Shown: positions 19,251 through 58,839 of the stretch, in pieces
How positions within the stretch are numbered: position 1 is the first letter of the stretch
How the letters are laid out: every line of letters starts with the position of its first letter
IMG/VR virus record: IMGVR_UViG_3300037502_002220
Span: 32,001 to 96,000 of that record
Reading direction: 5' to 3' (one strand)
Length of the DNA: 64,000 nt
Source: a virus
Made by a program: the position numbers and the translations under genes
Notes under the pieces: generated by a model
What the model saw: the letters and a program-made list of their open reading frames with translations, nothing else
What the model was told of the DNA's origin: nothing
The model's database searches: none

Positions 19251-19642
19251 GCTGCGCACCCTTTAGTGATCCACTGATGAACGCATTATCATATCTATAT
19301 ACAAATAAAGCTATAGATAAGGATATGCGCATCAGAACTAAACGCATAGACTTCTACTTGAACATCCTTGATAAACAAGCTGGTGTCAAGCTATTTGATA
19401 TCATGGAAGATACACTAGTACCTATCCAAGAGAACTTTAATACTATGCGTGGTCTAGAGCAAGCTGATGAAGTAGCACCAATACCGTCTTATACAGATCG
19501 TATTGCAGAAGGTAGATCAGAAGCTAAGGAAGTGTGGAATAACTCTGATAAAAAACTACCTTCTGGTTTTGACGAAGATCAGCGCATGTACTTAGAAGAA
19601 TTATTTAATGAAGGTATATTAGAACTTAACTGTACGTTATGA
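19247..19642 (+). CDS. Small cargo-module protein with terminal cysteines
   Basis: 131 aa, ATGA-coupled on both sides; starts MSC, ends NCTL. Confidence 0.65.
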   Translation: MSCAPFSDPLMNALSYLYTNKAIDKDMRIRTKRIDFYLNILDKQAGVKLFDIMEDTLVPIQENFNTMRGLEQADEVAPIPSYTDRIAEGRSEAKEVWNNSDKKLPSGFDEDQRMYLEELFNEGILELNCTL

Positions 19643-22600: not shown

Positions 22601-23637
22601 TGGCACACAGCTATGGTTTTGATAGCAACGGTAATGTAAGATTATTGACTAATCTACCACAAGAGAATCAAAAGAGTGTATACGAACGCATGATCTTTGA
22701 TGAAGCTAAAGGTAGCTTTACTATCGAAGGTCTTAATGAAGAACAAACTTCTAGGGCTATTATACAGTTTCAACAAGCTGTTAGAGCTGGTCAAAAGCGT
22801 GTTACTGGTACACTATCACAAGAAGATATCGCATACTGGCAAACTACGTTAACAGGTAAATTAGTAATGATGTTTAAATCTTGGATGCCTTCTATCCTTA
22901 AAGAAAGATTTGGTGCTACTAGGTTTAATGACGTACTAGATGTAGTAGAGCAAGGTAGATATCGTGCTGTATGGGAGAATAACGAAATAGAAGATAACAC
23001 AAACACACTGGTATATTTCTTACATACTACTAAGAATACAGCAGCGTTTGTAGTTAAGAATCTATTAATGACAAATAGTATTGCACGTAGGTTTGGTGCT
23101 AAGGTTAAGCTAGATGATACTAAACTTAGAAAACAGTACGCTGCATTTCTAAAGAAGTATGAGAAGTACCCTGGTATGCTAGAGAAGGTACCTACGTTTG
23201 AATCTTTTGTGCAAATGAAAGAAGGTCAAATACGTGCTGCTATTGGAGAGTTAGAAGTTTTAATACTACTTTCAGCAGCTATATTCTTGTTAGGTTCTGA
23301 TTTTGATGATGACGGTGAACCACTGTGGTCTGAAACTTGGGTAGCACACCAGATCTTTAAAGTACTTAACCGTACTAAAACAGAACTTAGCTTTACATAT
23401 AATGCAACAGAATACGCTAAGCTAGTAGCTAATCCTATACCTCTTACTGGGTTATTGACACATGTAATTAAGCTACTTGGAAACACAATAGATGAGACTG
23501 GTGATACATTACTTGGTGAAAATAATCAACGAGACAAAGCAGAAAAGTTACATTATACTACAGGACTTATTCAAGGTATGTATCAGCTTAGGAAATTTTT
23601 TGATGTCCTTAGCGTTGATGAAGCAGCTACTCGTTAA
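19639..23637 (+). CDS. Large cargo protein with N-terminal PD-(D/E)XK (RecB/Cas4-like) nuclease domain
   Basis: GTAVH...LAGTVDLV...VYDFKT...QMNSY; 1332 aa; last gene of the + strand module. Confidence 0.75.
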   Translation: MSCKTPTFEELMQAVKNRMFLKIAKEKTQDGIVEALKFTSDVLQLRQQNVNPKNVGDDTSRYTLIDPSAGDTSVFLSNRVTDRVARYYRKIFEKPSNPNTAQMEYGTAVHKVMQNLLEGNYNNTLDINAVYAAQVNTPYSLTLEQVQQLNSYAKKLLKDIDAQQQAIDPKGTFRIAVENVVVDPVKDLAGTVDLVVVFSDGTVGVYDFKTMSPKSNVIERNMFGQITNVTGRDFVAATTRTGWSMQMNSYRDTLLEYYGAKDVRFTRIIPMFMNYTLDDNKQITGLREIITEANFEQLSPRSVGVEKFTNAAINEFLKTRYEYIEQLNKQIQSASRLERPKLYQQLNQVYDSIDMFVNNMDITMLINDALAVSKGTYETLAELKEAYTFVKAIVDLQRNLSDTTEAFDITFDADVIDTLAKNAAVLHEKYIKLILDGVEGRYGKLNVEGGEILLSEDDLLTQIFSTTTESQNPIVRYAQDLFQGSYNYQRREFRDFDEALASVEKPLIEWAKSRGETLADVYKYLLDLENGKFYGRVDLAFIERANQERDAENVEFFTKNYEIKDKNAKGETYKEWYNRNIKELTQVLEARFKNLDENQRVTAVQRALDNWQSNNDLKIENGIPRYPKAWLNKHNSWLKIKPGVLAANQSEQYTFMKANKPLLDYYEFLRDSVAKWRGETSYKLIDSYLFYPMVRASAIEKLGRTNAYDTLLTDIKEVLEIKQDDQLFGVSEINDDGTMVEAKQIPLYFTQPFRNAAGGIDTSQMSTDISASFRLMAKSVYNYKYMNQIEADILALQDLLKMVNYEEGGWGKKVVDFMNSVAKKDKTESGSMTDTVFKALRDYHLYGIRLQPGFNPKFVKAVDSAMQWFTLRSLGLGIIPATTSYVAGQVSARLEAVKGQIWDTEKWNLATKLMAKESKKYHGIGFFFGVHNEDMLQDILRQRVGGVSSVLGNTLYNNNLNKYVDQRLLMAPWSYGQERLDNHIAVAMAHSYGFDSNGNVRLLTNLPQENQKSVYERMIFDEAKGSFTIEGLNEEQTSRAIIQFQQAVRAGQKRVTGTLSQEDIAYWQTTLTGKLVMMFKSWMPSILKERFGATRFNDVLDVVEQGRYRAVWENNEIEDNTNTLVYFLHTTKNTAAFVVKNLLMTNSIARRFGAKVKLDDTKLRKQYAAFLKKYEKYPGMLEKVPTFESFVQMKEGQIRAAIGELEVLILLSAAIFLLGSDFDDDGEPLWSETWVAHQIFKVLNRTKTELSFTYNATEYAKLVANPIPLTGLLTHVIKLLGNTIDETGDTLLGENNQRDKAEKLHYTTGLIQGMYQLRKFFDVLSVDEAATR

Positions 23638-29080: not shown

Positions 29081-30025
29081 TTAATTCCAAATAGATGGGA
29101 TATCTAAACTATCTTGCTCTCTAGGACTAAAGTATTCACTCCAACCTTTGATACGCATACGATGCTTTATGATATTGTTATTGATATAAATATCTCCAAG
29201 ATCTTTAATAGCACCGTGCTTAGCAATCTCTAAATCTAAGTCAGAGATATTTATAGTAGCACAGGTGTTATCTGGCTTAGAGTACACAGCAATGTGACAC
29301 GTTACTGGTTTATCGTAGATAAGCTGTAGTGCTTCACGATAAAAAGAAAGTTGTATATCTGTTCTACGTCTACGTATTTCATTGTTGTAGTCTTCAATAG
29401 GTAACTCAGTATACTTGATGTCGTAGAGTTCAATACTATCTTCGTTAAATACAACTAGATCTATAAGACCTTTACATTCTTTACCATCGTACTTAAAGTA
29501 CACAGGCTTCTGAGCCTCATGTTCAGATCCTAGTTGATCTTTAAGATGGTACCTAAGTAGTTCACTAGGTGCATATAGGTTAATACGTAAATCAGCAGGT
29601 ACTAACTTTCTATCACCTTGCATGTGTAGATGTTCTAGATACTTCTGACCATTCTTAGTTACAACTACTGTGTTAATTCTAGTAGGTGTTTTATAACGCA
29701 TGTTGTACTCTAGCTCATCCATAATTTGAACTAGACCTTCTGTGTTACGATGTAATTCTTTTTCTTCAGGAAATCTTTTGTAATAGGTATCTACAATCTG
29801 TTTTACTTTACCTGTAGGCATCGCTGAAGATTGAGTCCATTCACAAAATAACTTTGTGTACAGCGATGGTGTAAGCACTAAGCAGTCAAAGATAGAACCT
29901 TTGAGTAGTGCTGGATTATCATCATTCTTTTCTCTTCTTGCTATTCCCAGCTCTACTTTTATTTGACTTTGGCTTATCGCTGGGTGATTGTAATACTCCT
30001 TGATTTGTTGCACCTTCGTATCCAT
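29081..30025 (-). CDS. PD-(D/E)XK exonuclease (RecE/DUF3799-like)
   Basis: ISQSQIK, GSIFD, CKGLIDLV, YDIKYT, QLSFY. Confidence 0.8.
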   Translation of the reverse strand: MDTKVQQIKEYYNHPAISQSQIKVELGIARREKNDDNPALLKGSIFDCLVLTPSLYTKLFCEWTQSSAMPTGKVKQIVDTYYKRFPEEKELHRNTEGLVQIMDELEYNMRYKTPTRINTVVVTKNGQKYLEHLHMQGDRKLVPADLRINLYAPSELLRYHLKDQLGSEHEAQKPVYFKYDGKECKGLIDLVVFNEDSIELYDIKYTELPIEDYNNEIRRRRTDIQLSFYREALQLIYDKPVTCHIAVYSKPDNTCATINISDLDLEIAKHGAIKDLGDIYINNNIIKHRMRIKGWSEYFSPREQDSLDIPSIWN

Positions 30026-31640: not shown

Positions 31641-33275
31641 TTATTCATAGCCCATTGCTTCCGATACTACAGGGAATCTTTTTTTAAATAGTTCACGAAT
31701 TTCATTAGCTACTTGACGATGTTCTAACTGTGTATGTGGATCCATGCGTACAGGAAGATAGTGCATCCAAGAACGCACAGAACCTTTCATATACATTGTA
31801 GTACTGGTAGCTAACGGTAATATACTTCTTGCAGTTTCTCTAGATACACCAGCGTCTAACAACGCTTCATACACATCAAAAGTAAGATCTGTAACCATAG
31901 CTACAAGTTCATCAGCTTCGTACTGTTGATCGTGTAATGTTACAATAGGATTAAATTCTTCTTCAGAAGATTGTCTATTGTTCTTAGCTTGCCTGCGTAT
32001 AGAGATAGGCTCTATACCTTGTGCATTTGCATATCTTTGTGAATTATGAGTTATAATATTGTTGGCTACATAATTGTGACTTTTATGGTTTACTTCTAAA
32101 TCATAGGTCATCTCTTCTCCTACATATTCTATTGAAACTATGTGAGAATAACCTATTGTTTTTCTACTCTCTATTGATTCTTTTACACTTTTAAGCTTAT
32201 GTTCTTCTTTTGTTAACAACTGTAAGTTGTTTATATCAAAAGCTAATTCTGGGTACAAATAAACAGGTAAAATATGGTCTACTTCATATAAGTGAAGATC
32301 TTTAAAATTAATATTTTGTCTTACAGCCAAAAGCGCTTTGTGTTTTATACACTCATTTGCAACTTGTTTTCTCCAAGATATAGTATTACCTGTATACAAA
32401 TTAGAATCAGAACCTTTTCTAGAAGCTTTTCTCAAGTTTAATCTTAACTCAAGATTAAACTTTTTACCAAAATTAGGTTGCAATTCAGTAGGTAATCCTT
32501 TATTCCAGGCTTCTGTATACAAGCTTGTTTCACTTTTAGTAAACTGCAAAGAGTGTATCTTTAACCACTTTCTAATTGTGTGATAAGAAACATTAGCTTT
32601 ATCTGCAATATACTGCACTCCATTTCTACTTAGCGATTCTTCTTTAGCTTTAGCTAGCCAGTCTTTATCTTGATAACAAGCTATTCCGTTAACGGCTATG
32701 TAATTACCTACAGCTAAATCACTTAGTTTTTTAAATCCTTCTTTGGTTAAAAACTTGTGGTCTAATGTAGACTTAATATTTTTACCGTTTGCTAAAGTAA
32801 CTTTGTAAACAGGTTTTACTCCTGTCTGAAATACTTCTTTTATTTCTACACTCTTAAATGTTTTTGAATCTTCGTCGTATACTTTCACTCTCGGTGCTCC
32901 GAATCTGTTCCAATAAGAACTCTTGTATCGTTTATACAAGCTTTCTATTGTTACTTTTTTACATTTACGAGCGTCAGGATAAAATAATGTTATCAGACTA
33001 TCTCCTGATATACAAAATTCTTGAAAAAAGAACGAACGATGCCTAAGAATTTGTGCAGCTACATATCTACTGGTTGTAATCTCAACAGTGTAATCTACCA
33101 TCTCAAAAGGAGACCAGTGTTTATGTTTTACAAGATACTGTAACAGCTTAGGTGCAGTATCTAGATTAAGTTGATTCTCTGGATTACTGACCCTAGCTTC
33201 ATACACAATTAGATCTTCTGCTTTATCAATACCTTTTACTAGAGGCATTGTAATAGATACTTCAGATACTTTCAT
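31641..33275 (-). CDS. thyX: Flavin-dependent thymidylate synthase interrupted by an intein
   Basis: HWSPFE, QILRHRSF..QEF|SQRY, RETARSILP, RSWMHY, TQLEHR. Confidence 0.92.
   Translation of the reverse strand: MKVSEVSITMPLVKGIDKAEDLIVYEARVSNPENQLNLDTAPKLLQYLVKHKHWSPFEMVDYTVEITTSRYVAAQILRHRSFFFQEFCISGDSLITLFYPDARKCKKVTIESLYKRYKSSYWNRFGAPRVKVYDEDSKTFKSVEIKEVFQTGVKPVYKVTLANGKNIKSTLDHKFLTKEGFKKLSDLAVGNYIAVNGIACYQDKDWLAKAKEESLSRNGVQYIADKANVSYHTIRKWLKIHSLQFTKSETSLYTEAWNKGLPTELQPNFGKKFNLELRLNLRKASRKGSDSNLYTGNTISWRKQVANECIKHKALLAVRQNINFKDLHLYEVDHILPVYLYPELAFDINNLQLLTKEEHKLKSVKESIESRKTIGYSHIVSIEYVGEEMTYDLEVNHKSHNYVANNIITHNSQRYANAQGIEPISIRRQAKNNRQSSEEEFNPIVTLHDQQYEADELVAMVTDLTFDVYEALLDAGVSRETARSILPLATSTTMYMKGSVRSWMHYLPVRMDPHTQLEHRQVANEIRELFKKRFPVVSEAMGYE
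32043..33014 (-). mobile_element. Intein (324 aa) carrying an HNH homing endonuclease
   Basis: Starts Cys (CISGDS), TLDHKF block B, ends TYDLEV...IITHN before Ser; EVDHILP...NLQLL...H HNH motif. Confidence 0.9.
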
Positions 33276-35520: not shown

Positions 35521-36288
35521 TTATTGGTTAATAAAATCAGTGCTTACACCAAAGTACTCACAGATAATCCTCAATGCTTCACCAGCATCGTTAGGTAGCG
35601 TACCTTCGCTAGGGAACATACCATAAGGTGCTCTTGCGGGAGTATCACCTAGTGGCTTAGTTCTAAAAAGGTACTTAGGCTGCTGTGTAACAGGATCTGT
35701 TTGTACATCAGTTACTAAGATGATATCCCACAGTGATGCCAAAGGTACATTCTTTTTCAACATTTGACCAGCGCAAGAGATCTCATGTTTAGTACGTACC
35801 ATGTAACCATCCATGATCTCGGTTGCTGTCAGGTGAAAGTTAAAAACAATAAATAAGTCATCACGGTTCAAAGCAGGGTTAGCAGTAATCTTATCTAAGG
35901 CATCAAACATTTTGTAAGTGTTAACACCTAAATCAGCCCAATCTTGGCGTTCAAGTTTAGACTTCTGCATTACTGTTTTACCCATCGTAAAGTTAGCATC
36001 GTCAACGATAATAACTTTAATATCAGGTCTTTTTTCTGCTACATACAAGAGTACGTCAGCAATCTTTTCTGGATCTATGGTAGCTAAATACCTACCACCT
36101 TCCATAATCTTTTTGTCAGCGTTGAATACCTTACGCCAATTAGGTACAGGAATAAGTTTACCTGGGCCAGCGCAAGTAATATACAACGTTTTATCCACAG
36201 GTAAACCTTTTATTCCTAATTCTTCATTAGGAAATAATGACGTGGTTTTACCTGAACCTGGATAACCAGCAATTACAAATGATACCAT
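35521..36288 (-). CDS. AAA_24 family P-loop ATPase (Sak4-like)
   Basis: GYPGSGKTT Walker A, IIVDD Walker B, PYGMF...PND tail. Confidence 0.8.
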   Translation of the reverse strand: MVSFVIAGYPGSGKTTSLFPNEELGIKGLPVDKTLYITCAGPGKLIPVPNWRKVFNADKKIMEGGRYLATIDPEKIADVLLYVAEKRPDIKVIIVDDANFTMGKTVMQKSKLERQDWADLGVNTYKMFDALDKITANPALNRDDLFIVFNFHLTATEIMDGYMVRTKHEISCAGQMLKKNVPLASLWDIILVTDVQTDPVTQQPKYLFRTKPLGDTPARAPYGMFPSEGTLPNDAGEALRIICEYFGVSTDFINQ

Positions 36289-41762: not shown

Positions 41763-41798
41763 ACTGTTTGAGTTAGGTGTTACCCTAACCCAAACAGT
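41763..41798 (-). terminator. Long hairpin with GTAACA loop and U tract after the AAA ATPase
   Basis: actgtttgagttagg/cctaacccaaacagt; A tract at 41757-41763 on +. Confidence 0.7.
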
Positions 41799-43338: not shown

Positions 43339-43440
43339 TTATTTGTGTGCAACTAATACCAATAACCCACCAGGTTGCTGATAAAAATCACAGTGTACAT
43401 CTTTAGGGGCAATTAGCCAGTGTAAGTAGTATGCTTGCAT
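43339..43440 (-). CDS. Array micro-ORF 50 (33 aa)
   Basis: MQAYYLHWLIAPKDVHCDFYQQPGGLLVLVAHK. Confidence 0.55.
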   Translation of the reverse strand: MQAYYLHWLIAPKDVHCDFYQQPGGLLVLVAHK

Positions 43441-43531
43441 ACTTTAGTATTAAAAAGTAAGAAGTATTACTTAAGTTATTTTCTACTGGAATACGAATAT
43501 ACATGTGGTAATAGAACTTTATTGTGTTCAT
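43403..43531 (-). CDS. Array micro-ORF 49 (42 aa)
   Basis: MNTIKFYYHMYIRIPVENNLSNTSYFLILKYASILLTLANCP. Confidence 0.65.
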   Translation of the reverse strand: MNTIKFYYHMYIRIPVENNLSNTSYFLILKYASILLTLANCP

Positions 43532-43641
43532 ACTTTAAAGTTTAATGTGTAGAAAATAGAAGTCTTTGCTAACAAGAATACAGTTCGTCGTTTCATAGAC
43601 CACCAGTATTTTTTATTCACGTCAATGCTGTATATATTCAT
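43528..43641 (-). CDS. Array micro-ORF 48 (37 aa)
   Basis: MNIYSIDVNKKYWWSMKRRTVFLLAKTSIFYTLNFKV. Confidence 0.6.
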   Translation of the reverse strand: MNIYSIDVNKKYWWSMKRRTVFLLAKTSIFYTLNFKV

Positions 43642-43746
43642 TTACTGTATATATAGTTTTTGAACTAAATAACAATAGTTAAGTTCGTATACTAAACTGC
43701 AGTGAAAAGTAGGATGTACCCACTCCATGTTTTTAAATATCAACAT
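43642..43746 (-). CDS. Array micro-ORF 47 (34 aa)
   Basis: MLIFKNMEWVHPTFHCSLVYELNYCYLVQKLYIQ. Confidence 0.6.
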   Translation of the reverse strand: MLIFKNMEWVHPTFHCSLVYELNYCYLVQKLYIQ

Positions 43747-43850
43747 ATTAACTTATTTACTAATATGAATATTTTTGAAGCAGCGTGTATTCTAATTATA
43801 GTAGTGCGATAATTGTACGCAAACATTGTTGAAATACCTCTTACTAACAT
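43740..43850 (-). CDS. Array micro-ORF 46 (36 aa)
   Basis: MLVRGISTMFAYNYRTTIIRIHAASKIFILVNKLIC. Confidence 0.6.
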   Translation of the reverse strand: MLVRGISTMFAYNYRTTIIRIHAASKIFILVNKLIC

Positions 43851-43951
43851 AACATGTATTTTAACAAGGCTTTTACATCAACTCTATTTTCATTAGCATT
43901 GCTGAAGTAAAAGTCTTGTGCTCTTGTTAATCTTAGATTACTTACCTCCAT
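43844..43951 (-). CDS. Array micro-ORF 45 (35 aa)
   Basis: MEVSNLRLTRAQDFYFSNANENRVDVKALLKYMLC. Confidence 0.65.
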   Translation of the reverse strand: MEVSNLRLTRAQDFYFSNANENRVDVKALLKYMLC

Positions 43952-44058
43952 AGTACATACTTTAAGACTGGTACAAGATCAGCTTCTGGTTGATTTGCAA
44001 AATGTATTAGTTTTTTAGAACCGTAGTTACTTACATCGTAAAGTGTAGTACATCTCAT
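43942..44058 (-). CDS. Array micro-ORF 44 (38 aa)
   Basis: MRCTTLYDVSNYGSKKLIHFANQPEADLVPVLKYVLWR. Confidence 0.65.
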   Translation of the reverse strand: MRCTTLYDVSNYGSKKLIHFANQPEADLVPVLKYVLWR

Positions 44059-44168
44059 ACAATAAACTTTAAGCAGCAGTCGTGAAAAACAAGTTGTCTA
44101 GTAGAAGCTTTATGTAGTTCTTTACAACCAGCAGAGTAGTTTGTGAACCTAAGCATTACAAATGTCAT
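44055..44168 (-). CDS. Array micro-ORF 43 (37 aa)
   Basis: MTFVMLRFTNYSAGCKELHKASTRQLVFHDCCLKFIV. Confidence 0.65.
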   Translation of the reverse strand: MTFVMLRFTNYSAGCKELHKASTRQLVFHDCCLKFIV

Positions 44169-44274
44169 AGTACAGGTATTTAATCATCAATAAATACTTA
44201 GTGTTATACATCTCTCCAGATATAAAACTACGTAGATTTTGTATATGGTATCTATTTAATCTTTCTGTAGGCAT
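44149..44274 (-). CDS. Array micro-ORF 42 (41 aa)
   Basis: MPTERLNRYHIQNLRSFISGEMYNTKYLLMIKYLYYDICNA. Confidence 0.6.
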   Translation of the reverse strand: MPTERLNRYHIQNLRSFISGEMYNTKYLLMIKYLYYDICNA

Positions 44275-44369
44275 TATTGAAATTTTATAATTAATTGATA
44301 ACTATTTCTAACCGTAGGTGAGTAAAACATCATATCAACTACATGGTACCTTACTTTTATTACGTGCAT
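44274..44369 (-). CDS. Array micro-ORF 41 (31 aa)
   Basis: MHVIKVRYHVVDMMFYSPTVRNSYQLIIKFQ. Confidence 0.6.
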   Translation of the reverse strand: MHVIKVRYHVVDMMFYSPTVRNSYQLIIKFQ

Positions 44370-44464
44370 TTTACAATTATTTTTACGTAGTGATCGTAAT
44401 AAGGTTTCCACATGAACTTTCTACTTATACGAGCTCGTATGTATTGTACTTCTTCACTCCACAT
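44360..44464 (-). CDS. Array micro-ORF 40 (34 aa)
   Basis: MWSEEVQYIRARISRKFMWKPYYDHYVKIIVKCT. Confidence 0.55.
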   Translation of the reverse strand: MWSEEVQYIRARISRKFMWKPYYDHYVKIIVKCT

Positions 44465-44567
44465 ATTTTATAGGTATTAGCGCATATGATTTTGTAAATG
44501 TATTTGGTCTGTACAATATCTCAGCGTGAGCTCTATCAAATAGATAAACAGATTTAGCTGTGTTCAT
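44454..44567 (-). CDS. Array micro-ORF 39 (37 aa)
   Basis: MNTAKSVYLFDRAHAEILYRPNTFTKSYALIPIKYVE. Confidence 0.6.
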   Translation of the reverse strand: MNTAKSVYLFDRAHAEILYRPNTFTKSYALIPIKYVE

Positions 44568-44686
44568 CGTTTTTTACATATGATTAAGTAAATAGTATTT
44601 ACATTATCAAAATATAAATCACCGCACGATTCTTTCTTAGAACGGTAATAATACTGATAGTAAAAATCATCTGGTTCAAATTCCAT
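44564..44686 (-). CDS. Array micro-ORF 38 (40 aa)
   Basis: MEFEPDDFYYQYYYRSKKESCGDLYFDNVNTIYLIICKKR. Confidence 0.6.
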   Translation of the reverse strand: MEFEPDDFYYQYYYRSKKESCGDLYFDNVNTIYLIICKKR

Positions 44687-44689
44687 AGT

Positions 44690-44788
44690 TTACAGTTTAT
44701 ATGTTTGTGATACAATAAAATGTAATTTAGTTCCACCAAACTTAATAGTACTAATTACAACTTCTTGCATTAGAAAAAATATGTTCAT
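44690..44788 (-). CDS. Array micro-ORF 37 (32 aa)
   Basis: MNIFFLMQEVVISTIKFGGTKLHFIVSQTYKL. Confidence 0.55.
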   Translation of the reverse strand: MNIFFLMQEVVISTIKFGGTKLHFIVSQTYKL

Positions 44789-44886
44789 AGCTGTTTGATT
44801 ATAACACGGTGCCAGATATCTTCAGAGTAATGTTCTTTATCTACAGACTTGTAAATTGTAAATAACTTTACAAATTGTGTAAGCAT
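44785..44886 (-). CDS. Array micro-ORF 36 (33 aa)
   Basis: MLTQFVKLFTIYKSVDKEHYSEDIWHRVIIKQL. Confidence 0.6.
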   Translation of the reverse strand: MLTQFVKLFTIYKSVDKEHYSEDIWHRVIIKQL

Positions 44887-44887
44887 G

Positions 44888-45010
44888 CTAGTGGTATTTA
44901 AGCATTGTAATAAATGTATGTAGATGATACTCTATTGTTATAGCTGGGTAGCATTTAGGTACGTAGAACGTATAGCTTAGTTCCATAGTGTATATCTTAC
45001 TTGTTTGCAT
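44888..45010 (-). CDS. Array micro-ORF 35 (40 aa; alternative start 44986)
   Basis: MQTSKIYTMELSYTFYVPKCYPAITIEYHLHTFITMLKYH. Confidence 0.6.
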   Translation of the reverse strand: MQTSKIYTMELSYTFYVPKCYPAITIEYHLHTFITMLKYH

Positions 45011-45123
45011 GGTACGTGTTTTGTAATTATACCGAATGATTGCATTGTGTACGTAAACATTAATTTATGCGGTATAAACGTTTTACTGCGATTAGGTACA
45101 CAAATAATTAAAATTACTTCCAT
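44977..45123 (-). CDS. Array micro-ORF 34 (48 aa)
   Basis: MEVILIICVPNRSKTFIPHKLMFTYTMQSFGIITKHVPCKQVRYTLWN. Confidence 0.65.
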   Translation of the reverse strand: MEVILIICVPNRSKTFIPHKLMFTYTMQSFGIITKHVPCKQVRYTLWN

Positions 45124-45227
45124 GATACACGTTTTACTACAATTCTAAACCCAGTATCTAGTATATTTCTATTAGGAAACCTGAGTTCGTGATTAGCTTG
45201 TACAACACCGTTTAGATATATCATCAT
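45114..45227 (-). CDS. Array micro-ORF 33 (37 aa)
   Basis: MMIYLNGVVQANHELRFPNRNILDTGFRIVVKRVSWK. Confidence 0.7.
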   Translation of the reverse strand: MMIYLNGVVQANHELRFPNRNILDTGFRIVVKRVSWK

Positions 45228-45346
45228 CGTATAAACTTTAGTGTTAGTATAAACCTATCTCTTTCTGTCATATTGTTGTGTATATATTGAATAACACTCT
45301 TACCCATACCTCTAAAATCTGGATATATACAAATTAAGATCATCAT
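45224..45346 (-). CDS. Array micro-ORF 32 (40 aa)
   Basis: MMILICIYPDFRGMGKSVIQYIHNNMTERDRFILTLKFIR. Confidence 0.7.
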   Translation of the reverse strand: MMILICIYPDFRGMGKSVIQYIHNNMTERDRFILTLKFIR

Positions 45347-45462
45347 AGTATTTGCTTTAGTGTTATTTTAAATACGTCGTATATAGTTAAGGTGTCTTGC
45401 AAAGATTGAGGACAATCTTTATTTGCATTAAATTTTGGGTAACAAACTATTATGTAAATCAT
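45343..45462 (-). CDS. Array micro-ORF 31 (39 aa)
   Basis: MIYIIVCYPKFNANKDCPQSLQDTLTIYDVFKITLKQIL. Confidence 0.7.
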   Translation of the reverse strand: MIYIIVCYPKFNANKDCPQSLQDTLTIYDVFKITLKQIL

Positions 45463-45578
45463 GATACATGTTTTAAGATAAGTTGAAATCTATCGTCGTA
45501 CACAATATCAGCTACAAGGTTTGCTTCTACCCTACTCTTGTAAGCTGCAGGATTGCGTACAAATATTACTGCTAACAT
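45459..45578 (-). CDS. Array micro-ORF 30 (39 aa)
   Basis: MLAVIFVRNPAAYKSRVEANLVADIVYDDRFQLILKHVS. Confidence 0.7.
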   Translation of the reverse strand: MLAVIFVRNPAAYKSRVEANLVADIVYDDRFQLILKHVS

Positions 45579-45685
45579 GGTATCTGTTTTAAGGTAACAT
45601 GAAGTCTAAGCGCATTGATTGAAGGATGACCTAAACGTATGTGTGAAAATTGTTCAGATTTAATTTGTAGTTCTATGTATTTCAT
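45572..45685 (-). CDS. Array micro-ORF 29 (37 aa)
   Basis: MKYIELQIKSEQFSHIRLGHPSINALRLHVTLKQIPC. Confidence 0.7.
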   Translation of the reverse strand: MKYIELQIKSEQFSHIRLGHPSINALRLHVTLKQIPC

Positions 45686-45701
45686 GGTATTTGTTTTAAT
45701 A

Positions 45702-45818
45702 TTACAGTAATTGTGCTTGTTTTAAGATAACACGATATCTTTCCATACTAATTCCCATACCGTGAATATACGCTTGATAAATCGTATTAGGACTAGTTAT
45801 TATGTCAATGTGAAACAT
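45702..45818 (-). CDS. Array micro-ORF 28 (38 aa)
   Basis: MFHIDIITSPNTIYQAYIHGMGISMERYRVILKQAQLL. Confidence 0.65.
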   Translation of the reverse strand: MFHIDIITSPNTIYQAYIHGMGISMERYRVILKQAQLL

Positions 45819-45918
45819 GTACTTGTTTTAAGATAATAGAAAAGCTCTCACGACCACTGTATCCTAACATTATTACAGTTAAAAAAGCGGCTGTGTATCC
45901 ATATGCGTCAGTTCTCAT
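45805..45918 (-). CDS. Array micro-ORF 27 (37 aa)
   Basis: MRTDAYGYTAAFLTVIMLGYSGRESFSIILKQVHVSH. Confidence 0.7.
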   Translation of the reverse strand: MRTDAYGYTAAFLTVIMLGYSGRESFSIILKQVHVSH

Positions 45919-46019
45919 GGTATTAATTTTAAAGTAATCGAAAAGCAATCATATCCGCTATGTCCTAGTTCGTGTACATAAATATAACTATACGCGTGTC
46001 CATATGCCCATGTGTTCAT
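45915..46019 (-). CDS. Array micro-ORF 26 (34 aa)
   Basis: MNTWAYGHAYSYIYVHELGHSGYDCFSITLKLIP. Confidence 0.7.
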   Translation of the reverse strand: MNTWAYGHAYSYIYVHELGHSGYDCFSITLKLIP

Positions 46020-46126
46020 AACATTAGTTTTAATATTATTGACAAATCATCTTGAACAACTTCGTTTAGTTCTACTTCATTAAAAGGTATTACGCCTTTT
46101 CCAATAAGTAAGTATATCGTATTCAT
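46016..46126 (-). CDS. Array micro-ORF 25 (36 aa)
   Basis: MNTIYLLIGKGVIPFNEVELNEVVQDDLSIILKLML. Confidence 0.7.
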   Translation of the reverse strand: MNTIYLLIGKGVIPFNEVELNEVVQDDLSIILKLML

Positions 46127-46242
46127 AATACAAACTTTATCATAACTAAAAAATCATCATCAAAAATTGGTATTAAACCACGGTCTTTGTTTACTAGCTT
46201 ACAAGAATAAAAAGAGTAACCTACGTAACTTGTTAAGTCCAT
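46123..46242 (-). CDS. Array micro-ORF 24 (39 aa)
   Basis: MDLTSYVGYSFYSCKLVNKDRGLIPIFDDDFLVMIKFVL. Confidence 0.7.
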   Translation of the reverse strand: MDLTSYVGYSFYSCKLVNKDRGLIPIFDDDFLVMIKFVL

Positions 46243-46319
46243 AATATTTTGATTGTGATTAAAACACTGTCGTCTGCGTAAAATATGTGATCTACAAGTG
46301 TTATGTATTTTGTGTCCAT
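46233..46319 (-). CDS. Array micro-ORF 23 (28 aa)
   Basis: MDTKYITLVDHIFYADDSVLITIKILWT. Confidence 0.65.
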   Translation of the reverse strand: MDTKYITLVDHIFYADDSVLITIKILWT

Positions 46320-46426
46320 AATATTAGTTTTAACGTAATTACAAAATCTTCGCACATAGCATTTGAACGTTTGATTTCACGTGCTGTAAGTAATGATTCA
46401 GATACTAGTATTCTGTAATATTCCAC
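46301..46426 (-). CDS. Array micro-ORF 22 (41 aa, GTG start)
   Basis: MEYYRILVSESLLTAREIKRSNAMCEDFVITLKLILWTQNT. Confidence 0.6.
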   Translation of the reverse strand: MEYYRILVSESLLTAREIKRSNAMCEDFVITLKLILWTQNT

Positions 46427-46542
46427 TTTAAGGTTATTAAAACATTATCGTATAAGTTTACACCCCTGTACGAATTAAAATATGTACTAGACATTATTTC
46501 TCGTCCAAGAAGTTTAACTGCTTCTAAACGTCGTATTTCCAT
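46405..46542 (-). CDS. Array micro-ORF 21 (45 aa)
   Basis: MEIRRLEAVKLLGREIMSSTYFNSYRGVNLYDNVLITLKWNITEY. Confidence 0.6.
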   Translation of the reverse strand: MEIRRLEAVKLLGREIMSSTYFNSYRGVNLYDNVLITLKWNITEY

Positions 46543-46667
46543 GTCAGTATAATTAAGAAATCTTTATCCTCAAGTTTTGTTCTTTTTAATCTATCCAGTA
46601 AATGTTCATTACCATGTGTACCAATAGGCATACATAGATCTAACATTGTAAAGTATTTTACTTCCAT
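46524..46667 (-). CDS. Array micro-ORF 20 (47 aa)
   Basis: MEVKYFTMLDLCMPIGTHGNEHLLDRLKRTKLEDKDFLIILTWKYDV. Confidence 0.6.
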   Translation of the reverse strand: MEVKYFTMLDLCMPIGTHGNEHLLDRLKRTKLEDKDFLIILTWKYDV

Positions 46668-46792
46668 CACATGTATTTAACCGTAAAAATAAAATCATTC
46701 TTGACGTAGCTACAATTACTAAATGCTAGGTAATCTAAATACAGTTTACAATCTATACTATGTACCCACATTGTTAAGTCTGTAAATTTCAT
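46667..46792 (-). CDS. Array micro-ORF 19 (41 aa)
   Basis: MKFTDLTMWVHSIDCKLYLDYLAFSNCSYVKNDFIFTVKYM. Confidence 0.7.
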   Translation of the reverse strand: MKFTDLTMWVHSIDCKLYLDYLAFSNCSYVKNDFIFTVKYM

Positions 46793-46911
46793 ACCATGTG
46801 TTTATTTGCTAATTGTAAAATAACCTTAAGATGTGCACAGTTAACATAAGGTGGAATAAACACATCATTATCTAATAAAATGTATTCCCAATCCCTATAT
46901 TCTACTTGCAT
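46789..46911 (-). CDS. Array micro-ORF 18 (40 aa)
   Basis: MQVEYRDWEYILLDNDVFIPPYVNCAHLKVILQLANKHMV. Confidence 0.7.
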   Translation of the reverse strand: MQVEYRDWEYILLDNDVFIPPYVNCAHLKVILQLANKHMV

Positions 46912-47021
46912 ACCATGTACTTTTTTATAAGCCTAAAGTTAGGTTTAAAGAAAGCGTATTTAATAACATAGGGCTCAAGAAACACGTCTGTAGTATAGTT
47001 CCAACCAGTTTCTACTTTCAC
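46902..47021 (-). CDS. Array micro-ORF 17 (39 aa, GTG start)
   Basis: MKVETGWNYTTDVFLEPYVIKYAFFKPNFRLIKKYMVCK. Confidence 0.7.
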   Translation of the reverse strand: MKVETGWNYTTDVFLEPYVIKYAFFKPNFRLIKKYMVCK

Positions 47022-47137
47022 GATATTTGTTTTACAGTAATTAAAGGTAGTACAGTAGGCTTACTTATTCTGCGATCAGCATCATACATTGGATTTGATA
47101 TAGGAAGGTTTACGTAAAAGGTCATAAATGCTATCAT
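47018..47137 (-). CDS. Array micro-ORF 16 (39 aa)
   Basis: MIAFMTFYVNLPISNPMYDADRRISKPTVLPLITVKQIS. Confidence 0.7.
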   Translation of the reverse strand: MIAFMTFYVNLPISNPMYDADRRISKPTVLPLITVKQIS

Positions 47138-47241
47138 AATCTGTATTTTAGTACAAATATTACAATGTCTATCTTAGGTGCATGTTTTAGCTTGTCGTGA
47201 AATCTATAGCCATCAAAGGTATAGTCTAATGAAGCTTTCAT
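47134..47241 (-). CDS. Array micro-ORF 15 (35 aa)
   Basis: MKASLDYTFDGYRFHDKLKHAPKIDIVIFVLKYRL. Confidence 0.7.
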   Translation of the reverse strand: MKASLDYTFDGYRFHDKLKHAPKIDIVIFVLKYRL

Positions 47242-47339
47242 ACAAATATTTTACTGATGACTAAAAGAGATCTACCTGCGTAAGTTGTTTTTAATTTTCC
47301 ACTAGAACTGTCGACCCATAAAATGTATAGCAACCTCAT
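47238..47339 (-). CDS. Array micro-ORF 14 (33 aa)
   Basis: MRLLYILWVDSSSGKLKTTYAGRSLLVISKIFV. Confidence 0.7.
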   Translation of the reverse strand: MRLLYILWVDSSSGKLKTTYAGRSLLVISKIFV

Positions 47340-47437
47340 TCTGCATGTTTTATAGTAATGAATAAACATATTCCACATTTACCAGATCTTCTGTCATTCT
47401 TAAGGTTAGTACCTACGACACTGTGTGTTATAATCAT
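47336..47437 (-). CDS. Array micro-ORF 13 (33 aa)
   Basis: MIITHSVVGTNLKNDRRSGKCGICLFITIKHAE. Confidence 0.7.
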   Translation of the reverse strand: MIITHSVVGTNLKNDRRSGKCGICLFITIKHAE

Positions 47438-47553
47438 TGTATGTGTTTTAAACTAATTCTAAATCTAAGTACAGTAATGACATAGGCTTTAAGATCCATT
47501 TTTAGCACTAAGTCACTGTTCTTTAATGTCTCAACAAATCCTACAAATTTCAT
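47434..47553 (-). CDS. Array micro-ORF 12 (39 aa)
   Basis: MKFVGFVETLKNSDLVLKMDLKAYVITVLRFRISLKHIQ. Confidence 0.7.
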   Translation of the reverse strand: MKFVGFVETLKNSDLVLKMDLKAYVITVLRFRISLKHIQ

Positions 47554-47699
47554 GGTATGTATTTTACAATAGCTCCAAAATTACTTGCGTTATGGTTCAA
47601 GTTTAAATAATCTACAGCTTCGTGTAAACGTATAGTCATGTAGTTATTTATGTACGGTGTAGTAACTGCTCTGTACATCATTAAGTCTATAAATTTCAT
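47550..47699 (-). CDS. Array micro-ORF 11 (49 aa)
   Basis: MKFIDLMMYRAVTTPYINNYMTIRLHEAVDYLNLNHNASNFGAIVKYIP. Confidence 0.7.
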   Translation of the reverse strand: MKFIDLMMYRAVTTPYINNYMTIRLHEAVDYLNLNHNASNFGAIVKYIP

Positions 47700-47821
47700 G
47701 ATACAAGTTTTAATGTAAACAAATGTCCACGACTTTGCCGAGATGCGTTCATTACATAGGTTTTTGCACGTGTCCGATCACTTGTAAATGGGAGGTATGC
47801 AATTATGTGCCTTATTTTCAC
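47696..47821 (-). CDS. Array micro-ORF 10 (41 aa, GTG start)
   Basis: MKIRHIIAYLPFTSDRTRAKTYVMNASRQSRGHLFTLKLVS. Confidence 0.7.
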   Translation of the reverse strand: MKIRHIIAYLPFTSDRTRAKTYVMNASRQSRGHLFTLKLVS

Positions 47822-47925
47822 GGTATTATTTTTAATGTAATTAATAATCTTTTTGGTATCGTACTTCTTATCAATCTTATGTTGAGGAAGTCAGTGTCAT
47901 TTTTAAATATTTGTACAAATTTCAT
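47818..47925 (-). CDS. Array micro-ORF 9 (35 aa)
   Basis: MKFVQIFKNDTDFLNIRLIRSTIPKRLLITLKIIP. Confidence 0.7.
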   Translation of the reverse strand: MKFVQIFKNDTDFLNIRLIRSTIPKRLLITLKIIP

Positions 47926-48053
47926 AAAACTAGCTTTAGCATAACGTAAAATGAATAAGGAGGTACGTTATCTAATTGTAATACCTCAAGTACGTGTTCT
48001 GTTAACGTGCATACAGACTCGTCTTTAACAAGTATCATTTCAATAAATCTCAT
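47922..48053 (-). CDS. Array micro-ORF 8 (43 aa)
   Basis: MRFIEMILVKDESVCTLTEHVLEVLQLDNVPPYSFYVMLKLVL. Confidence 0.7.
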   Translation of the reverse strand: MRFIEMILVKDESVCTLTEHVLEVLQLDNVPPYSFYVMLKLVL

Positions 48054-48074
48054 GATTTAAGTTTTAACAGGGTT

Positions 48075-48290
48075 TTACGTAAGTGGTCCAAAATATCTTC
48101 TGTTAATTTCAGTTAACAGCGCACTTCTTAAAACAATTAATCCTATGTGAAAACTTTTTGCAAGATTGTATTTAAAAATTAATTGCCTGACAATTGAATT
48201 TTCATTAAAAGCTAATGATTCAGACTCTTTAGAAATGCCCATTAATTCTTCTGTAGATAATTCTTTTAGGTATTCAGCTAATGTTTCCAT
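48075..48290 (-). CDS. Unrelated helical 71-aa protein inserted in the array
   Basis: METLAEYLKELSTEEL...; lacks the array motif; flanked by 17-nt near-identical direct repeats. Confidence 0.7.
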   Translation of the reverse strand: METLAEYLKELSTEELMGISKESESLAFNENSIVRQLIFKYNLAKSFHIGLIVLRSALLTEINRRYFGPLT

Positions 48291-48394
48291 GATTTATGTT
48301 TTAAAATAATTTGAAAATGTGTACGTTTTACAGAGTAGCTCAAATCGAGCACTAAAATCTTATAGTCACTTAAGTAATAAACTAAAGTGTTCAC
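48278..48394 (-). CDS. Array micro-ORF 7 (38 aa, GTG start)
   Basis: MNTLVYYLSDYKILVLDLSYSVKRTHFQIILKHKSWKH. Confidence 0.7.
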   Translation of the reverse strand: MNTLVYYLSDYKILVLDLSYSVKRTHFQIILKHKSWKH

Positions 48395-48531
48395 AGTTTA
48401 TGTTTTTGCACAAAAAAGAAGTAATTACAATCTTTAAAATCGTAATCTATAACTGTACATATTTCTGCAAAGTTGATTGTTAAAAGTGTATAGCTATTTT
48501 TGAATATTAATACTATATAAACATTGCTCAT
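48391..48531 (-). CDS. Array micro-ORF 6 (46 aa)
   Basis: MSNVYIVLIFKNSYTLLTINFAEICTVIDYDFKDCNYFFFVQKHKL. Confidence 0.7.
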   Translation of the reverse strand: MSNVYIVLIFKNSYTLLTINFAEICTVIDYDFKDCNYFFFVQKHKL

Positions 48532-48641
48532 AGCTTATATTTTAATAAGATATTGTAATGAAGCATGTAATTACCTCTACCTGTGAGATATACATCTATA
48601 CCATTGTGGCGTATATCTAACAATAATCTGAGTGTGTTCAT
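48528..48641 (-). CDS. Array micro-ORF 5 (37 aa)
   Basis: MNTLRLLLDIRHNGIDVYLTGRGNYMLHYNILLKYKL. Confidence 0.7.
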   Translation of the reverse strand: MNTLRLLLDIRHNGIDVYLTGRGNYMLHYNILLKYKL

Positions 48642-48763
48642 TTTCTGTATTTTATTACAGCCCAGAAATGCATCAATAAACCTGTACCTATATGTCGATG
48701 TAATATTATATTACCATCTGTAGATTTAAAGTTTGATATCTCAAGTACTCCTAAGTAGTTCAT
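48638..48763 (-). CDS. Array micro-ORF 4 (41 aa)
   Basis: MNYLGVLEISNFKSTDGNIILHRHIGTGLLMHFWAVIKYRK. Confidence 0.7.
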   Translation of the reverse strand: MNYLGVLEISNFKSTDGNIILHRHIGTGLLMHFWAVIKYRK

Positions 48764-48879
48764 AATGCCAGTTTTAGTAGTGATAAATAACAAAAATCAA
48801 GCCTTAAAAAGTGGTTTGTTTCATCGTGGTGTGAGTATGTTATACATATGTACATAGAATAAATTTCAGATAGATACAT
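48760..48879 (-). CDS. Array micro-ORF 3 (39 aa)
   Basis: MYLSEIYSMYICITYSHHDETNHFLRLDFCYLSLLKLAL. Confidence 0.6.
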   Translation of the reverse strand: MYLSEIYSMYICITYSHHDETNHFLRLDFCYLSLLKLAL

Positions 48880-48979
48880 AACTAGGTATGTATTTTAATA
48901 TTAAATGAGGTGTTATCTTAGCCATAGACATTGTCATAGAATATACGTTGATGTCTGCAAATAAAAGTACCGTCTTCAT
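48866..48979 (-). CDS. Array micro-ORF 2 (37 aa)
   Basis: MKTVLLFADINVYSMTMSMAKITPHLILKYIPSYVSI. Confidence 0.65.
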   Translation of the reverse strand: MKTVLLFADINVYSMTMSMAKITPHLILKYIPSYVSI

Positions 48980-49080
48980 GATAGAATTTTCATTGTTACA
49001 GGTATGCTTATTTCATCAGCTTGTAGTGTATATAAATAAAGTCTATCGTACTGTGTTATGTATAAAACTTTCATTTTCAT
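48976..49080 (-). CDS. Array micro-ORF 1 (34 aa)
   Basis: MKMKVLYITQYDRLYLYTLQADEISIPVTMKILS. Confidence 0.65.
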   Translation of the reverse strand: MKMKVLYITQYDRLYLYTLQADEISIPVTMKILS

Positions 49081-49101
49081 AGGTAGGTATATTAAACACA
49101 A

Positions 49102-49124
49102 ATGCCCTTGGTTTACAAGGGCAT
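49102..49124 (-). promoter_or_regulatory. Hairpin just upstream of the micro-ORF array (terminator/attenuator or 5' stabiliser)
   Basis: atgcccttg/caagggcat perfect 9-bp stem, followed by TTGTGTTT on -. Confidence 0.55.
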
Positions 49125-49130
49125 CGTGGA

Positions 49131-49523: not shown

Positions 49524-50348
49524 TCAATAGAAAAAGATATTAGACATGTACTCTTCTTTTGGAAACTTATCTTTCCAGATATCCTCGTCCATATAGGGTA
49601 AGTTATCGGGAACAGCCATTTTCCACACATTACCTACAGTATCGTAGATACCGTACTTGTTTGGTTTCTTCTTCTTTACAGGTTGTGTTTTACCACCCAT
49701 CTCTGCAGTAGTCCATGCAATCTCTTGAATATCTGTACGAGTATCTAAGTTCTCAGCATGATCTGCAGCGATTGTAGTCCACTCTGCTTTTGTAGGAAAC
49801 AGGAATACAGCGTGACCTTTGATAGCTGGGTTATACCAGAACCACCACTGACCGTTGTACTCTTTCATGATATACGGCATTGGTTTACCGTGCATATCAT
49901 TTAACCAGTTGATGTACGAGATTGCGTTCAAGATCTCAAGGTTAATCGCTGGGCGATCATCGCGACCATAGTTTTGATCATTAGCGAGATCTCTTCCTGT
50001 CATATAACAGAAAGCATCAAACTGGTTGAACGTAACTACGGTATCTGCTGATGCAACAAGTGGAAAACACTCTGCAGGTAACGGTACAAAAGTACCTAAA
50101 TCAATGTCTTTGTCGCTGATAGTCTTTTGCTCAAAAGCACGTTGTGATGTAGCTACAGCAACTACAAACGGTTCTACAGGTTTTCTGTTGACCACATTAA
50201 TAATTGCAATAGCATTACGGTGTACTTCTTCAAGCTCTGGTGTGTTGAAATACTTACGCATTTTAGGTAATGCTTGTGCATACCATTTACCAAAATCTTT
50301 AGAAGAAGCTTTTTGTTGAACTTGATCTTTAAATTCTTGTACAGTCAT
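49524..50348 (-). CDS. FGE-sulfatase/SUMF1-family (C-type lectin fold) domain protein, divergent
   Basis: VTFNQF, RPAINL, PTKAEW, TQPVKKKKPNKYGIYDTVGNVW. Confidence 0.75.
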   Translation of the reverse strand: MTVQEFKDQVQQKASSKDFGKWYAQALPKMRKYFNTPELEEVHRNAIAIINVVNRKPVEPFVVAVATSQRAFEQKTISDKDIDLGTFVPLPAECFPLVASADTVVTFNQFDAFCYMTGRDLANDQNYGRDDRPAINLEILNAISYINWLNDMHGKPMPYIMKEYNGQWWFWYNPAIKGHAVFLFPTKAEWTTIAADHAENLDTRTDIQEIAWTTAEMGGKTQPVKKKKPNKYGIYDTVGNVWKMAVPDNLPYMDEDIWKDKFPKEEYMSNIFFY

Positions 50349-52197: not shown

Positions 52198-53031
52198 TTA
52201 CGTCATGTTTATTTTTATGGAAATGTTATCACGATCAGTACCTTTTATTTCTAAGTACCAACCTCCTATATTTTTAGGTACTCCTAGTTTTTCAACAGCC
52301 CAGCTAGTAGCAACTGCATATTCTTCTTTATAAGTTCCAGATTTAATAAAATATTGAGGTCTTAGTAAAAGATTTCCAGTTTTAGTTATATCATACCTCA
52401 TAATTTCAGCTAAACTTCGGTCATGTGTATGTCCGCTAACAACAAAATCTGCGTCAGTAACTACACCATACCTACTATATGCTTGAAATCCACGTGATAC
52501 TACACCTCCCCAGAGACCATGATGATAGTACATGAGATATGTTTTTACATTAGCACCATTGCGGTGTAGTACAAACTTAATAAATCCATGATAACCTCCA
52601 GCATATACTTTCTCTTCTGGACCTTTATATAGATTTGTACCGTCTACAAATCTTTTAATGACATCAGTTTCTAACCTGTTTAATAGCCCTAATTCGTGGT
52701 TCCCTTTGGAAATCAATGAGATAGGATAATCTTTGAACTTTTCTATTGTATCTTCTATTACAGCGTCTATATAATTACTGGTATTGTGTTCTGGTCTAAT
52801 ATCTTTTTTACTAGACCTAGGATCATATTTCCCTTGCATCATGCAGAAGAAGTCTCCAAACACAAATATCTTACCGTTGCGTTCTGCTACATAGTCTAAG
52901 TGCTTATGTAGTTTATCACGTTGACATTTAGGGTTGTCATAGTGAAAATCGCTACCTAAAAAGAATAGCACATCTTCGCCGTAAGGAATACGTACTTCCA
53001 AGAGCACGTCACTAATCTGTTTAATTTCCAT
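52198..53031 (-). CDS. Calcineurin-like metallophosphoesterase
   Basis: SDFH, FGD, GNHE, HHG, GHTH. Confidence 0.88.
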   Translation of the reverse strand: MEIKQISDVLLEVRIPYGEDVLFFLGSDFHYDNPKCQRDKLHKHLDYVAERNGKIFVFGDFFCMMQGKYDPRSSKKDIRPEHNTSNYIDAVIEDTIEKFKDYPISLISKGNHELGLLNRLETDVIKRFVDGTNLYKGPEEKVYAGGYHGFIKFVLHRNGANVKTYLMYYHHGLWGGVVSRGFQAYSRYGVVTDADFVVSGHTHDRSLAEIMRYDITKTGNLLLRPQYFIKSGTYKEEYAVATSWAVEKLGVPKNIGGWYLEIKGTDRDNISIKINMT

Positions 53032-58137: not shown

Positions 58138-58839
58138 TTACTTTGTAAGTGCTAAACGAAATCCACTGCCACCTGAAGAAAGGGCAACAAAGCGAGACGC
58201 AATGCGGCAGTTTATGATATTGGCAGTATAAGCACCACCACGTTCTGCCCGAAGAGGAGTTCCATCATATTCGTAATAACCTACTATGTCTTCGCACCAT
58301 TCCCTTATATTCCCGCTCATATCGTACAGCCCCAACTCATTAGGCTTCTTCTGCCCCACTGGATGCACTGTATTTCCAGAATTACCTTCATACCACGCAA
58401 CTTCATGTAAGTTATTACTGCCTGCGTACCTGTATCCTTTGGTTTTTAAACCGCCACGGGCTGCAAACTCCCACTCTGCTTCCGTTGGCAAGCGATATTT
58501 CAGACCTGTTTTTCTGTTTATTTTAGCCAGAAACTTTTCAATCTTATAATAGTTTGCATATTGTACTGGACAATTATCGCAGGTTCTCAAATACTTTGCT
58601 TTGATTTTCATCACCTCGCGCCACTGTTTCTGCGTAACCGGATACTTACTAATATAAAAATCCGATACCGTTACTTGGTGTACAGGCTTTGTGTCCCTAT
58701 CCCAACACATAAAATTTCTGTAATCACGTTCTCCTGGAAAAATGTTGATTCTTTGTTCTGGGGTGCAACCCATCATTAATGTGCCTCCTTTCACAAGAAT
58801 CATGTTATTAAACATTTCTTCTAAGATTTCTTCTAGCAT
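58138..58839 (-). CDS. FGE-sulfatase/SUMF1-family (C-type lectin fold) protein
   Basis: RLPTEAEWEFAARGG, PNELGLYDMSGNIREWC, RGGAY, GFRL. Confidence 0.92.
   Translation of the reverse strand: MLEEILEEMFNNMILVKGGTLMMGCTPEQRINIFPGERDYRNFMCWDRDTKPVHQVTVSDFYISKYPVTQKQWREVMKIKAKYLRTCDNCPVQYANYYKIEKFLAKINRKTGLKYRLPTEAEWEFAARGGLKTKGYRYAGSNNLHEVAWYEGNSGNTVHPVGQKKPNELGLYDMSGNIREWCEDIVGYYEYDGTPLRAERGGAYTANIINCRIASRFVALSSGGSGFRLALTK

Follow-up and report, generated by a model that had tools for sequence, protein, structure and literature searches.

A strain-variable 71-residue gene in a phage array of micro-genes, and exchange of array units at their putative start junctions

The locus described here belongs to a phage of ~105 kb whose host is probably a Flavobacterium-like member of the Bacteroidota. 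The DNA analysed, referred to below as the window, is a stretch of 64,000 nucleotides corresponding to bases 32001-96000 of IMG/VR record IMGVR_UViG_3300037502_002220, which has 105,444 bases in total and is estimated to be 95% complete. The minus strand encodes a replication module made up of a DNA polymerase, helicases, a primase, a Sak4-like annealase, exonucleases and thymidylate synthase. The same strand carries a tandem array of very small genes (Table 1), and every ORF between 43352 and 49352 is shorter than 90 aa. ORFs of 28-49 aa tile the strand with a start-to-start period of ~100-125 nt, neighbours being joined mostly via ATGA overlaps. Nearly all of these micro-ORFs end in a hydrophobic-x-hydrophobic-Lys tail, which is encoded by a recurrent junction, TTAAAAC-N7-ATG. 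Terminator-like hairpins bound the array at 49101-49125 and 41763-41798, with none in its interior, and a gene for an AAA+ ATPase comes after it. Promoter patterns of the sigma-70 and Bacteroidota types are not enriched within the array (35 promoter-like sites against 42.5 expected).

Table 1. Features of the array, of the locus around the 71-aa gene and of the candidate recombination genes (window coordinates; J, junction; L002, a close relative; X2, a run of assembled contigs)
Feature	Position	Strand	Remarks
Tandem micro-gene array	43400..49080	-	about 40-50 putatively translationally coupled genes, ~5.7 kb
Micro-gene B	48278..48394	-	GTG start, 38 aa, family-type tail; overlaps start of 71-aa gene
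71-aa gene	48075..48290	-	intact full-length member of an uncharacterised ~70-aa four-helix protein family
Micro-gene C	47922..48053	-	43 aa; conserved in L002 (81% aa)
Upstream junction copy	48288..48304	-	putative start signal and ATG of 71-aa gene; also C-terminal tail codons of micro-gene B
Downstream junction copy	48051..48067	-	putative start signal and ATG of micro-gene C; read as C-terminus by no ORF
Spacer, 71-aa stop to unit C ATG (48053)	48054..48074	-	21 nt = 7 nt + 14-nt motif
Variable segment	48054..48387		unit B + 71-aa gene + junction, 334 nt; unrelated 112 nt in L002 and run X2
Filled/empty site	J47553		extra unit in L002
Filled/empty site	J43850		extra unit in L002
Filled/empty site	J45123/45010		extra unit in window
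Sak4-like ssDNA annealing protein	35521..36288	-	phrog_2872, E 1.6e-19; candidate catalyst of short-homology exchange
DNA-repair-type exonuclease (metallophosphatase-like)	52198..53031	-	phrog_7339, E 3.3e-11
Exonuclease VIII-like protein	29081..30025	-	phrog_412, E 1e-7

Several features elsewhere in the window may be recorded here. Two paralogous genes on the minus strand, at 49524-50348 and 58138-58839, encode FGE-sulfatase-like proteins that each hit phrog_18508, a family with the label 'kinase'; one of the genes adjoins the array on its upstream side. When GTDB was scanned with the FGE-like protein, only bacterial proteins of 27-32% identity and no phage relatives were returned. An FGE homologue of 96% identity was also noted. 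A 544-aa ORF at 31641-33275 (minus strand) matches thymidylate synthase at residues 19-88 and 411-541 and has HNH-endonuclease and terminase-like matches in its middle, which suggests a thymidylate synthase gene with an intein or homing-endonuclease insertion. On the plus strand, PHROG gave no match at E <= 1e-5 for the giant ORFs at 2008-8568, 8568-16169 and 16353-18746 (2186, 2533 and 797 aa). The N-terminal domain of a further ORF, of 1332 aa at 19639-23637, is exonuclease-like.

The locus was compared with one close relative genome, L002 (also G001), and with four runs of assembled contigs, X2 to X5. L002 is 102 kb long, 92% complete and 80-94% identical to the window in DNA sequence across the region. 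A more distant relative, L006 (also G002), encodes an FGE-like protein of 59% identity and an ATPase of 50% identity. The same array architecture is found in both genomes. For 15 positional orthologues among the array units, pN/pS is 0.33 in the proper frame; the two shifted frames give 0.91 and 0.76. Purifying selection is restricted to the reading frame, and the micro-ORFs are therefore genes rather than mere repeats. From their sequence we infer that the micro-genes, and the 71-aa gene among them, are translated.

The distant lineage offers some further observations. The window's arrangement of an FGE gene, the array and an AAA+ ATPase gene recurs at L006 12000-15700, at 946-4700 of contig L012 and in L013; the units of this lineage are longer (38-61 aa) and their tails read ...TLKHIP. 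Between contigs of two different metagenomes this array is 99.96% identical, and such arrays are therefore not hypervariable over short periods. L006 was considered as an outgroup for polarising changes at the level of single units and was set aside, the tail motif being all that its units and those of the window have in common. Within the window's own array, micro-gene A (48391-48531, minus strand) differs by 1 nt, at 48418 in a T-run, from its orthologue in L002 and X2; the relative's ORF continues in a different frame to a length of 73 aa and lacks the family tail. Either weak constraint or a homopolymer assembly error would explain this difference.

Among the 40 array ORFs listed, only the 71-aa ORF belongs to another protein family, as the first-pass annotation had claimed, and it alone stops before a canonical junction. 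Its product has neither the length of the array family (28-49 aa) nor a tail that overlaps the next start: it ends ...RRYFGPLT, 21 nt short of the next ATG, and its homologues end likewise. An exhaustive HMMER search added 20 representative clusters to the protein itself (29-56% identity, with E from 1.5e-14 to 3e-4). At E <= 1e-3 there are 21 matches, most of them 69-77 aa long and alignable from first to last residue, with about ten near-invariant columns, the conserved residues including L8, L16, F28, S32, R35, L54, L59, E61 and R65. Since homologues align end to end, the start and stop of the ORF are correct and there is no need to invoke a frameshift into the adjoining "LLKLKS" frame. AlphaFold2, supplied with the homologue alignment, predicts four helices with a pLDDT of 94.6 and a pTM of 0.82. 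On the evidence of the homologues and the predicted fold, the 71-aa ORF is a real gene.

The function of the protein is less accessible. It has no family in Pfam or PHROG, its Atlas matches are all to unnamed clusters, and a word-indexed search returned only the protein itself. In Foldseek comparisons of the model, neither the PDB nor BFVD contained a match at E <= 1e-3. The best VIA-align match, at Z 6.0, was to uL29-like helical hairpins (a ribosomal protein), a score too low to be meaningful for helical proteins, so that the match was rejected as an assignment and is a lead only. No match was obtained by tblastn of the protein against the GenBank phage collection or by megablast of the array, and pattern-based scans of viral, metagenome and genome collections with the homologues P0006, P0026 and P0027 found nothing. 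The gene had been called foreign, and this description holds in part. Its protein family is unrelated to that of the array and the gene is present in some relatives and absent from others; its GC content of 0.28, however, is close to the array's 0.30. Judged by its sequence, the gene is heterologous to the array, with no compositional sign of recent arrival.

The gene lies between two near-identical 17-mers, which were confirmed, together with the ORF itself, on re-reading the sequence. On the plus strand they read catgatttaagttttaa at 48051-48067 and catgatttatgttttaa at 48288-48304; they are 237 nt apart and 16/17 identical (94%), the identity stopping at the 17-mer ends. With up to 3 mismatches allowed, the window contains 10 occurrences of a degenerate form of the 17-mer, where shuffled sequence would give 1.9; the excess arises because the 17-mer is the array's own repeated junction. 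A position matrix derived from the junctions identifies about 37 array sites. The copy at 48290 is the highest-scoring of all (30.3 bits), whilst that at 48053 scores 15.9, its match being limited to the core TTAAAAC-N7-ATG, preceded by 14 nt that do not resemble the family.

The nature of this junction is most simply understood from the rest of the genome. At the starts of 67 long ORFs, A makes up 57-69% of positions -14 to -11, and runs of AAAA begin at -14 to -12. A occupies -3 in 67% of them and T occupies -2 in 58%; TTAAAAC itself precedes several. The start context of the long genes is the same as the junction, which marks the junction as foremost a putative translation-start region. In Flavobacterium, GeneMarkS-2 likewise found a TAAAAA core motif in place of the SD sequence (PMC6028130). 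TTAAAAC-N7-ATG(A) would then be a non-Shine-Dalgarno start region, with TAAAA near -13, A at -3 and pyrimidines at -2/-1. The first-pass annotation had seen an orphan C-terminus, with no ORF attached, in the downstream copy. The LLKLKS-stop junction is indeed not read by any ORF: the frame through CTG TTA AAA CTT AAA TCA TGA is open for ~20 codons and has no start. Its simplest reading, however, is the start signal of micro-gene C, retained because that gene requires such a signal for its translation and not because an ORF was lost.

How unusual the pair of 17-mers is can be judged against the other junctions. Of the 703 pairs formed by 38 junctions, 4 reach 16/17, the pair around the 71-aa gene and three more, which places this pair in the top 0.6%. 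Among the 37 adjacent pairs there are two, the second (45685/45578) surrounding an ordinary family unit. The match that had been singled out is therefore rare but not unique, an ordinary unit being flanked equally well. The spacer variant TAAATC, on the other hand, is exclusive to these two junctions within the array; it hints at a specific duplication or common descent that a generic start signal alone does not explain. A longer and weaker direct repeat is also present: 48266-48302 and 48370-48406, at the starts of the 71-aa gene and unit B respectively, are 73% identical over 37 nt, a stretch that covers the junction and the first ~8 codons (MET-L..YL and VNT-L..YL). It may be a chance product of AT-richness or the trace of a partial duplication.

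Comparison with the relatives reveals that the gene is not always present. Homology with L002 breaks off at 48388-48394, the GTG start of unit B, and picks up again precisely at 48053, where the ATG of unit C lies. In place of the intervening segment L002 has a family-type unit, B', which is joined to C by ATGA. The breakpoints of this replacement are the A|B junction and the unit C ATG, not the 17-mer copy at 48288-48304; the right-hand one falls at the ATG, outside the motif, and the L002 junction there (J4423) is unlike both copies in the window. An origin of B' by deletion within B and the 71-aa gene was considered and rejected, local alignment being no better than with shuffled sequences. 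Neither the 71-aa protein nor its family profile has a match in L002 or L006, so that not all relatives carry the gene at this position.

The assembled contigs contain both states. In run X2, from the study that yielded the window, the replacement of L002 type is found at high depth. Another study's run, X3, carries 48081-48548 at >=99% identity, and run X4, from a third, carries 47953-48246 at 97%, reaching from unit C across the downstream junction through most of the 71-aa gene; parts left uncovered in X3 to X5 were counted neither way. With the gene in contigs of X3 and X4 and absent from L002 and X2, the 71-aa gene is a real presence/absence polymorphism. A loose contig end in X2 at 48295 was examined as a possible third allele and dismissed, as it matches the L002 unit at 7170, a paralogous junction. 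It was also observed that X2, whose sample is dominated by the L002 type (depth ~162), contains a contig of depth 4 that is identical to the window type over 47664-47998. The two array alleles co-occur in this sample and could therefore recombine. The first-pass annotation had predicted an empty site at which B is joined to C by ATGA. No such site was found in L002, in the assembled contigs of runs X2-X5 or in an exact-pattern scan of IMG/VR, and the contigs showed no circular recombination product either; the relative instead has its non-homologous 112-nt unit in place of B and the gene. The exact pattern of the filled junction likewise had no match in IMG/VR once the window's own record was excluded.

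The variable segment is one of about a dozen cassette-sized differences that chained BLAST blocks reveal between the window and L002. The major differences have 22 ends, all situated at -22 to +47 nt relative to a start codon; 12 of these ends fall within +-9 nt of one, against 17% expected for random placement in a 112-nt unit (binomial p 7e-5). At three places (Table 1) there is a clean pair of filled and empty sites; at each of them the homology switches inside the ~20-nt motif, the left flank fitting one junction copy and the right flank the other. Some units have been swapped for unrelated ones whilst their neighbours remain 85-100% identical. Non-homologous swaps of this kind between conserved neighbours need exchange with other genomes. 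From one relative to another, array cassettes have been acquired, dropped or substituted, with exchange points in or at the ~20-30-nt junctions. The suggestion that junctions serve as sites of cassette gain and loss is supported, the ends of the differences falling at junction motifs.

On balance it is probable that the 71-aa gene is a real, strain-variable, heterologous cassette, that the two 17-mers are consecutive start junctions, and that exchange takes place at the junctions by short-homology recombination. One junction copy would start the 71-aa gene and the other micro-gene C. Recombination at the junctions, homologous or based on short homology, would bring about the exchange, both as unequal crossing-over within the array and as crossing-over between co-infecting relatives, and the 71-aa gene would have come or gone by the same route. 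The phage encodes both the Sak4-like protein and the exonucleases that had been named as candidate mediators, and these probably help junction exchange; two papers describe SSAPs as recombining short, diverged homologies and as generating phage mosaicism (PMC5499656, PMC5928155). No match to the tyrosine integrase family PF00589 was found in the genome (95% complete), the controls being positive in 14/14 cases. The term recombinase-free, used initially for the process, is an overstatement, because the phage's own annealase is the likely catalyst.

Three other explanations have to be weighed against exchange at start junctions. The one closest to the original interpretation is a single insertion, in which an ancestral B-C pair joined by ATGA received a 237-nt cassette, the gene together with a junction copy, through micro-homology, leaving the 17-mers as the signature of duplication. 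The topology is exactly that predicted by the PeSL mini-circle model, and the 71-aa gene is missing from both other lineages. The high rank of the pair and the TAAATC spacer peculiar to it are also as expected; moreover, the copies are in the same register, such that B would end '...LK-x-KS-stop' on ATGA like the unread copy. As a signature of insertion, however, the 17-mers lose their force, being the standard junction and a genome-wide start context; an ordinary family unit has flanks as good, and the identity is confined to the 17-mer. The B|C empty site, moreover, is absent from L002, runs X2-X5 and IMG/VR, and the sole gene-less relative has the non-homologous B', whose similarity does not exceed that of shuffles. 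An insertion in one step consequently appears unlikely to us.

It is also conceivable, and we would call it distinctly unlikely, that the 71-aa gene is an old resident of the array and that the L002 lineage lost it along with unit B, importing B' in place. A long residence would agree with a GC content and start context that are the array's own, with a divergence of the gene between samples (97-99%) that is like that of its flanks, and with the frequency of whole-unit replacements elsewhere in the array. It accords poorly with the distant lineage (L006, L012 and L013), which has the array yet no member of the 71-aa family in 47.6 kb, and with the gene's position as sole non-family member among ~40 units. 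Finally, ORF and repeats could be accidents of AT-rich DNA, with neither a gene nor an event to explain. A GC content of 28-30% and a short motif would favour such accidents, but this reading is scarcely credible in view of the 20 independent homologue clusters with conserved columns, the confident predicted fold and the tenfold occurrence of a motif expected 1.9 times in shuffles; for the ORF, the clusters and the AlphaFold2 model refute it.

If junction exchange is real, phages can swap very small genes without breaking their neighbours. Since the boundary element is a translation-start signal, any cassette that lands would be expressed by coupling and would supply the start of the next gene. 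It is attractive to consider, albeit as a tentative proposal with a small chance of being right, that the array is a phage-borne cassette platform, in which a dual-coded junction, at once start signal and peptide tail, also serves as a short-homology recombination site, so that unrelated genes are captured in a frame-neutral manner and expressed at once by translational coupling. It would be an integrase-free counterpart of the integron for translation units rather than transcription units. Taken alone the finding is modest, and the array holds most of the interest; if exchange at the junctions is real, the 71-aa helical protein would be a mobile accessory gene product, for example a candidate for host takeover or counter-defence.

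A number of parallels can be drawn with known systems. By its sequence the array junction fits the non-SD initiation region of Bacteroidota and Flavobacterium (GeneMarkS-2 group B, PMC6028130), with which it shares an A-rich TAAAA(A) core 10-15 nt upstream, an A at -3 and the lack of an SD sequence. It differs in that the array signal lies at a fixed distance inside the coding tail of the previous gene, and is for this reason far more uniform than at ordinary genes. The integron offers a one-directional array of promoterless cassettes with a repeated boundary element and, as here, a heterologous gene inside. By contrast with an integron, the array sits in a phage without a tyrosine integrase in its 95% complete genome, most of its cassettes are paralogues of one micro-gene family, and its exchange points behave as homologous crossovers. 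A search for attC-like imperfect inverted repeats found none centred on either junction, with weak scattered pairs only. As for a transposon or IS, the 237-nt insert is filled by the 71-aa gene and has no terminal inverted repeats.

Unequal crossing-over or slippage, combined with SSAP-driven mosaicism (PMC5499656, PMC5928155), resembles the array in the gain and loss of unit-sized segments at repeated boundaries, and a Sak4-like annealase is present. Unequal crossing-over accounts for the duplication and loss of family units but not for the arrival of a non-family gene or for non-homologous replacement, both of which call for exchange with other genomes. Among described systems the nearest is the modular shuffling of T4-type phages at PeSL (promoter-early stem-loop) motifs, in which recombination between conserved regulatory motifs adds, removes or exchanges the ORFans that they flank (PMC2839356; also PMC4122927; Arbiol et al. 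2010). In both cases small variable ORFs lie in a plastic region, each between copies of a conserved motif, and the insertions, deletions and replacements that distinguish close relatives end at the motifs. In both, general recombination would suffice with no dedicated site-specific recombinase, and each cassette would bring its own expression signal. A PeSL is, however, a boundary of ~100 bp between transcription units, composed of a sigma-70-type early promoter and a terminator stem-loop, whereas the array motif spans ~20-30 nt and is a putative translation-start region whose sequence doubles as the code for the tail of the preceding micro-protein, the genes being apparently chained in translation. 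Without the promoter and terminator composition the array does not belong to the PeSL family. It appears instead to be functionally similar to PeSL shuffling whilst being neither a PeSL member nor an integron, and, if junction exchange is real, it would extend the PeSL idea from transcription to translation signals, and to the phages of Bacteroidota.
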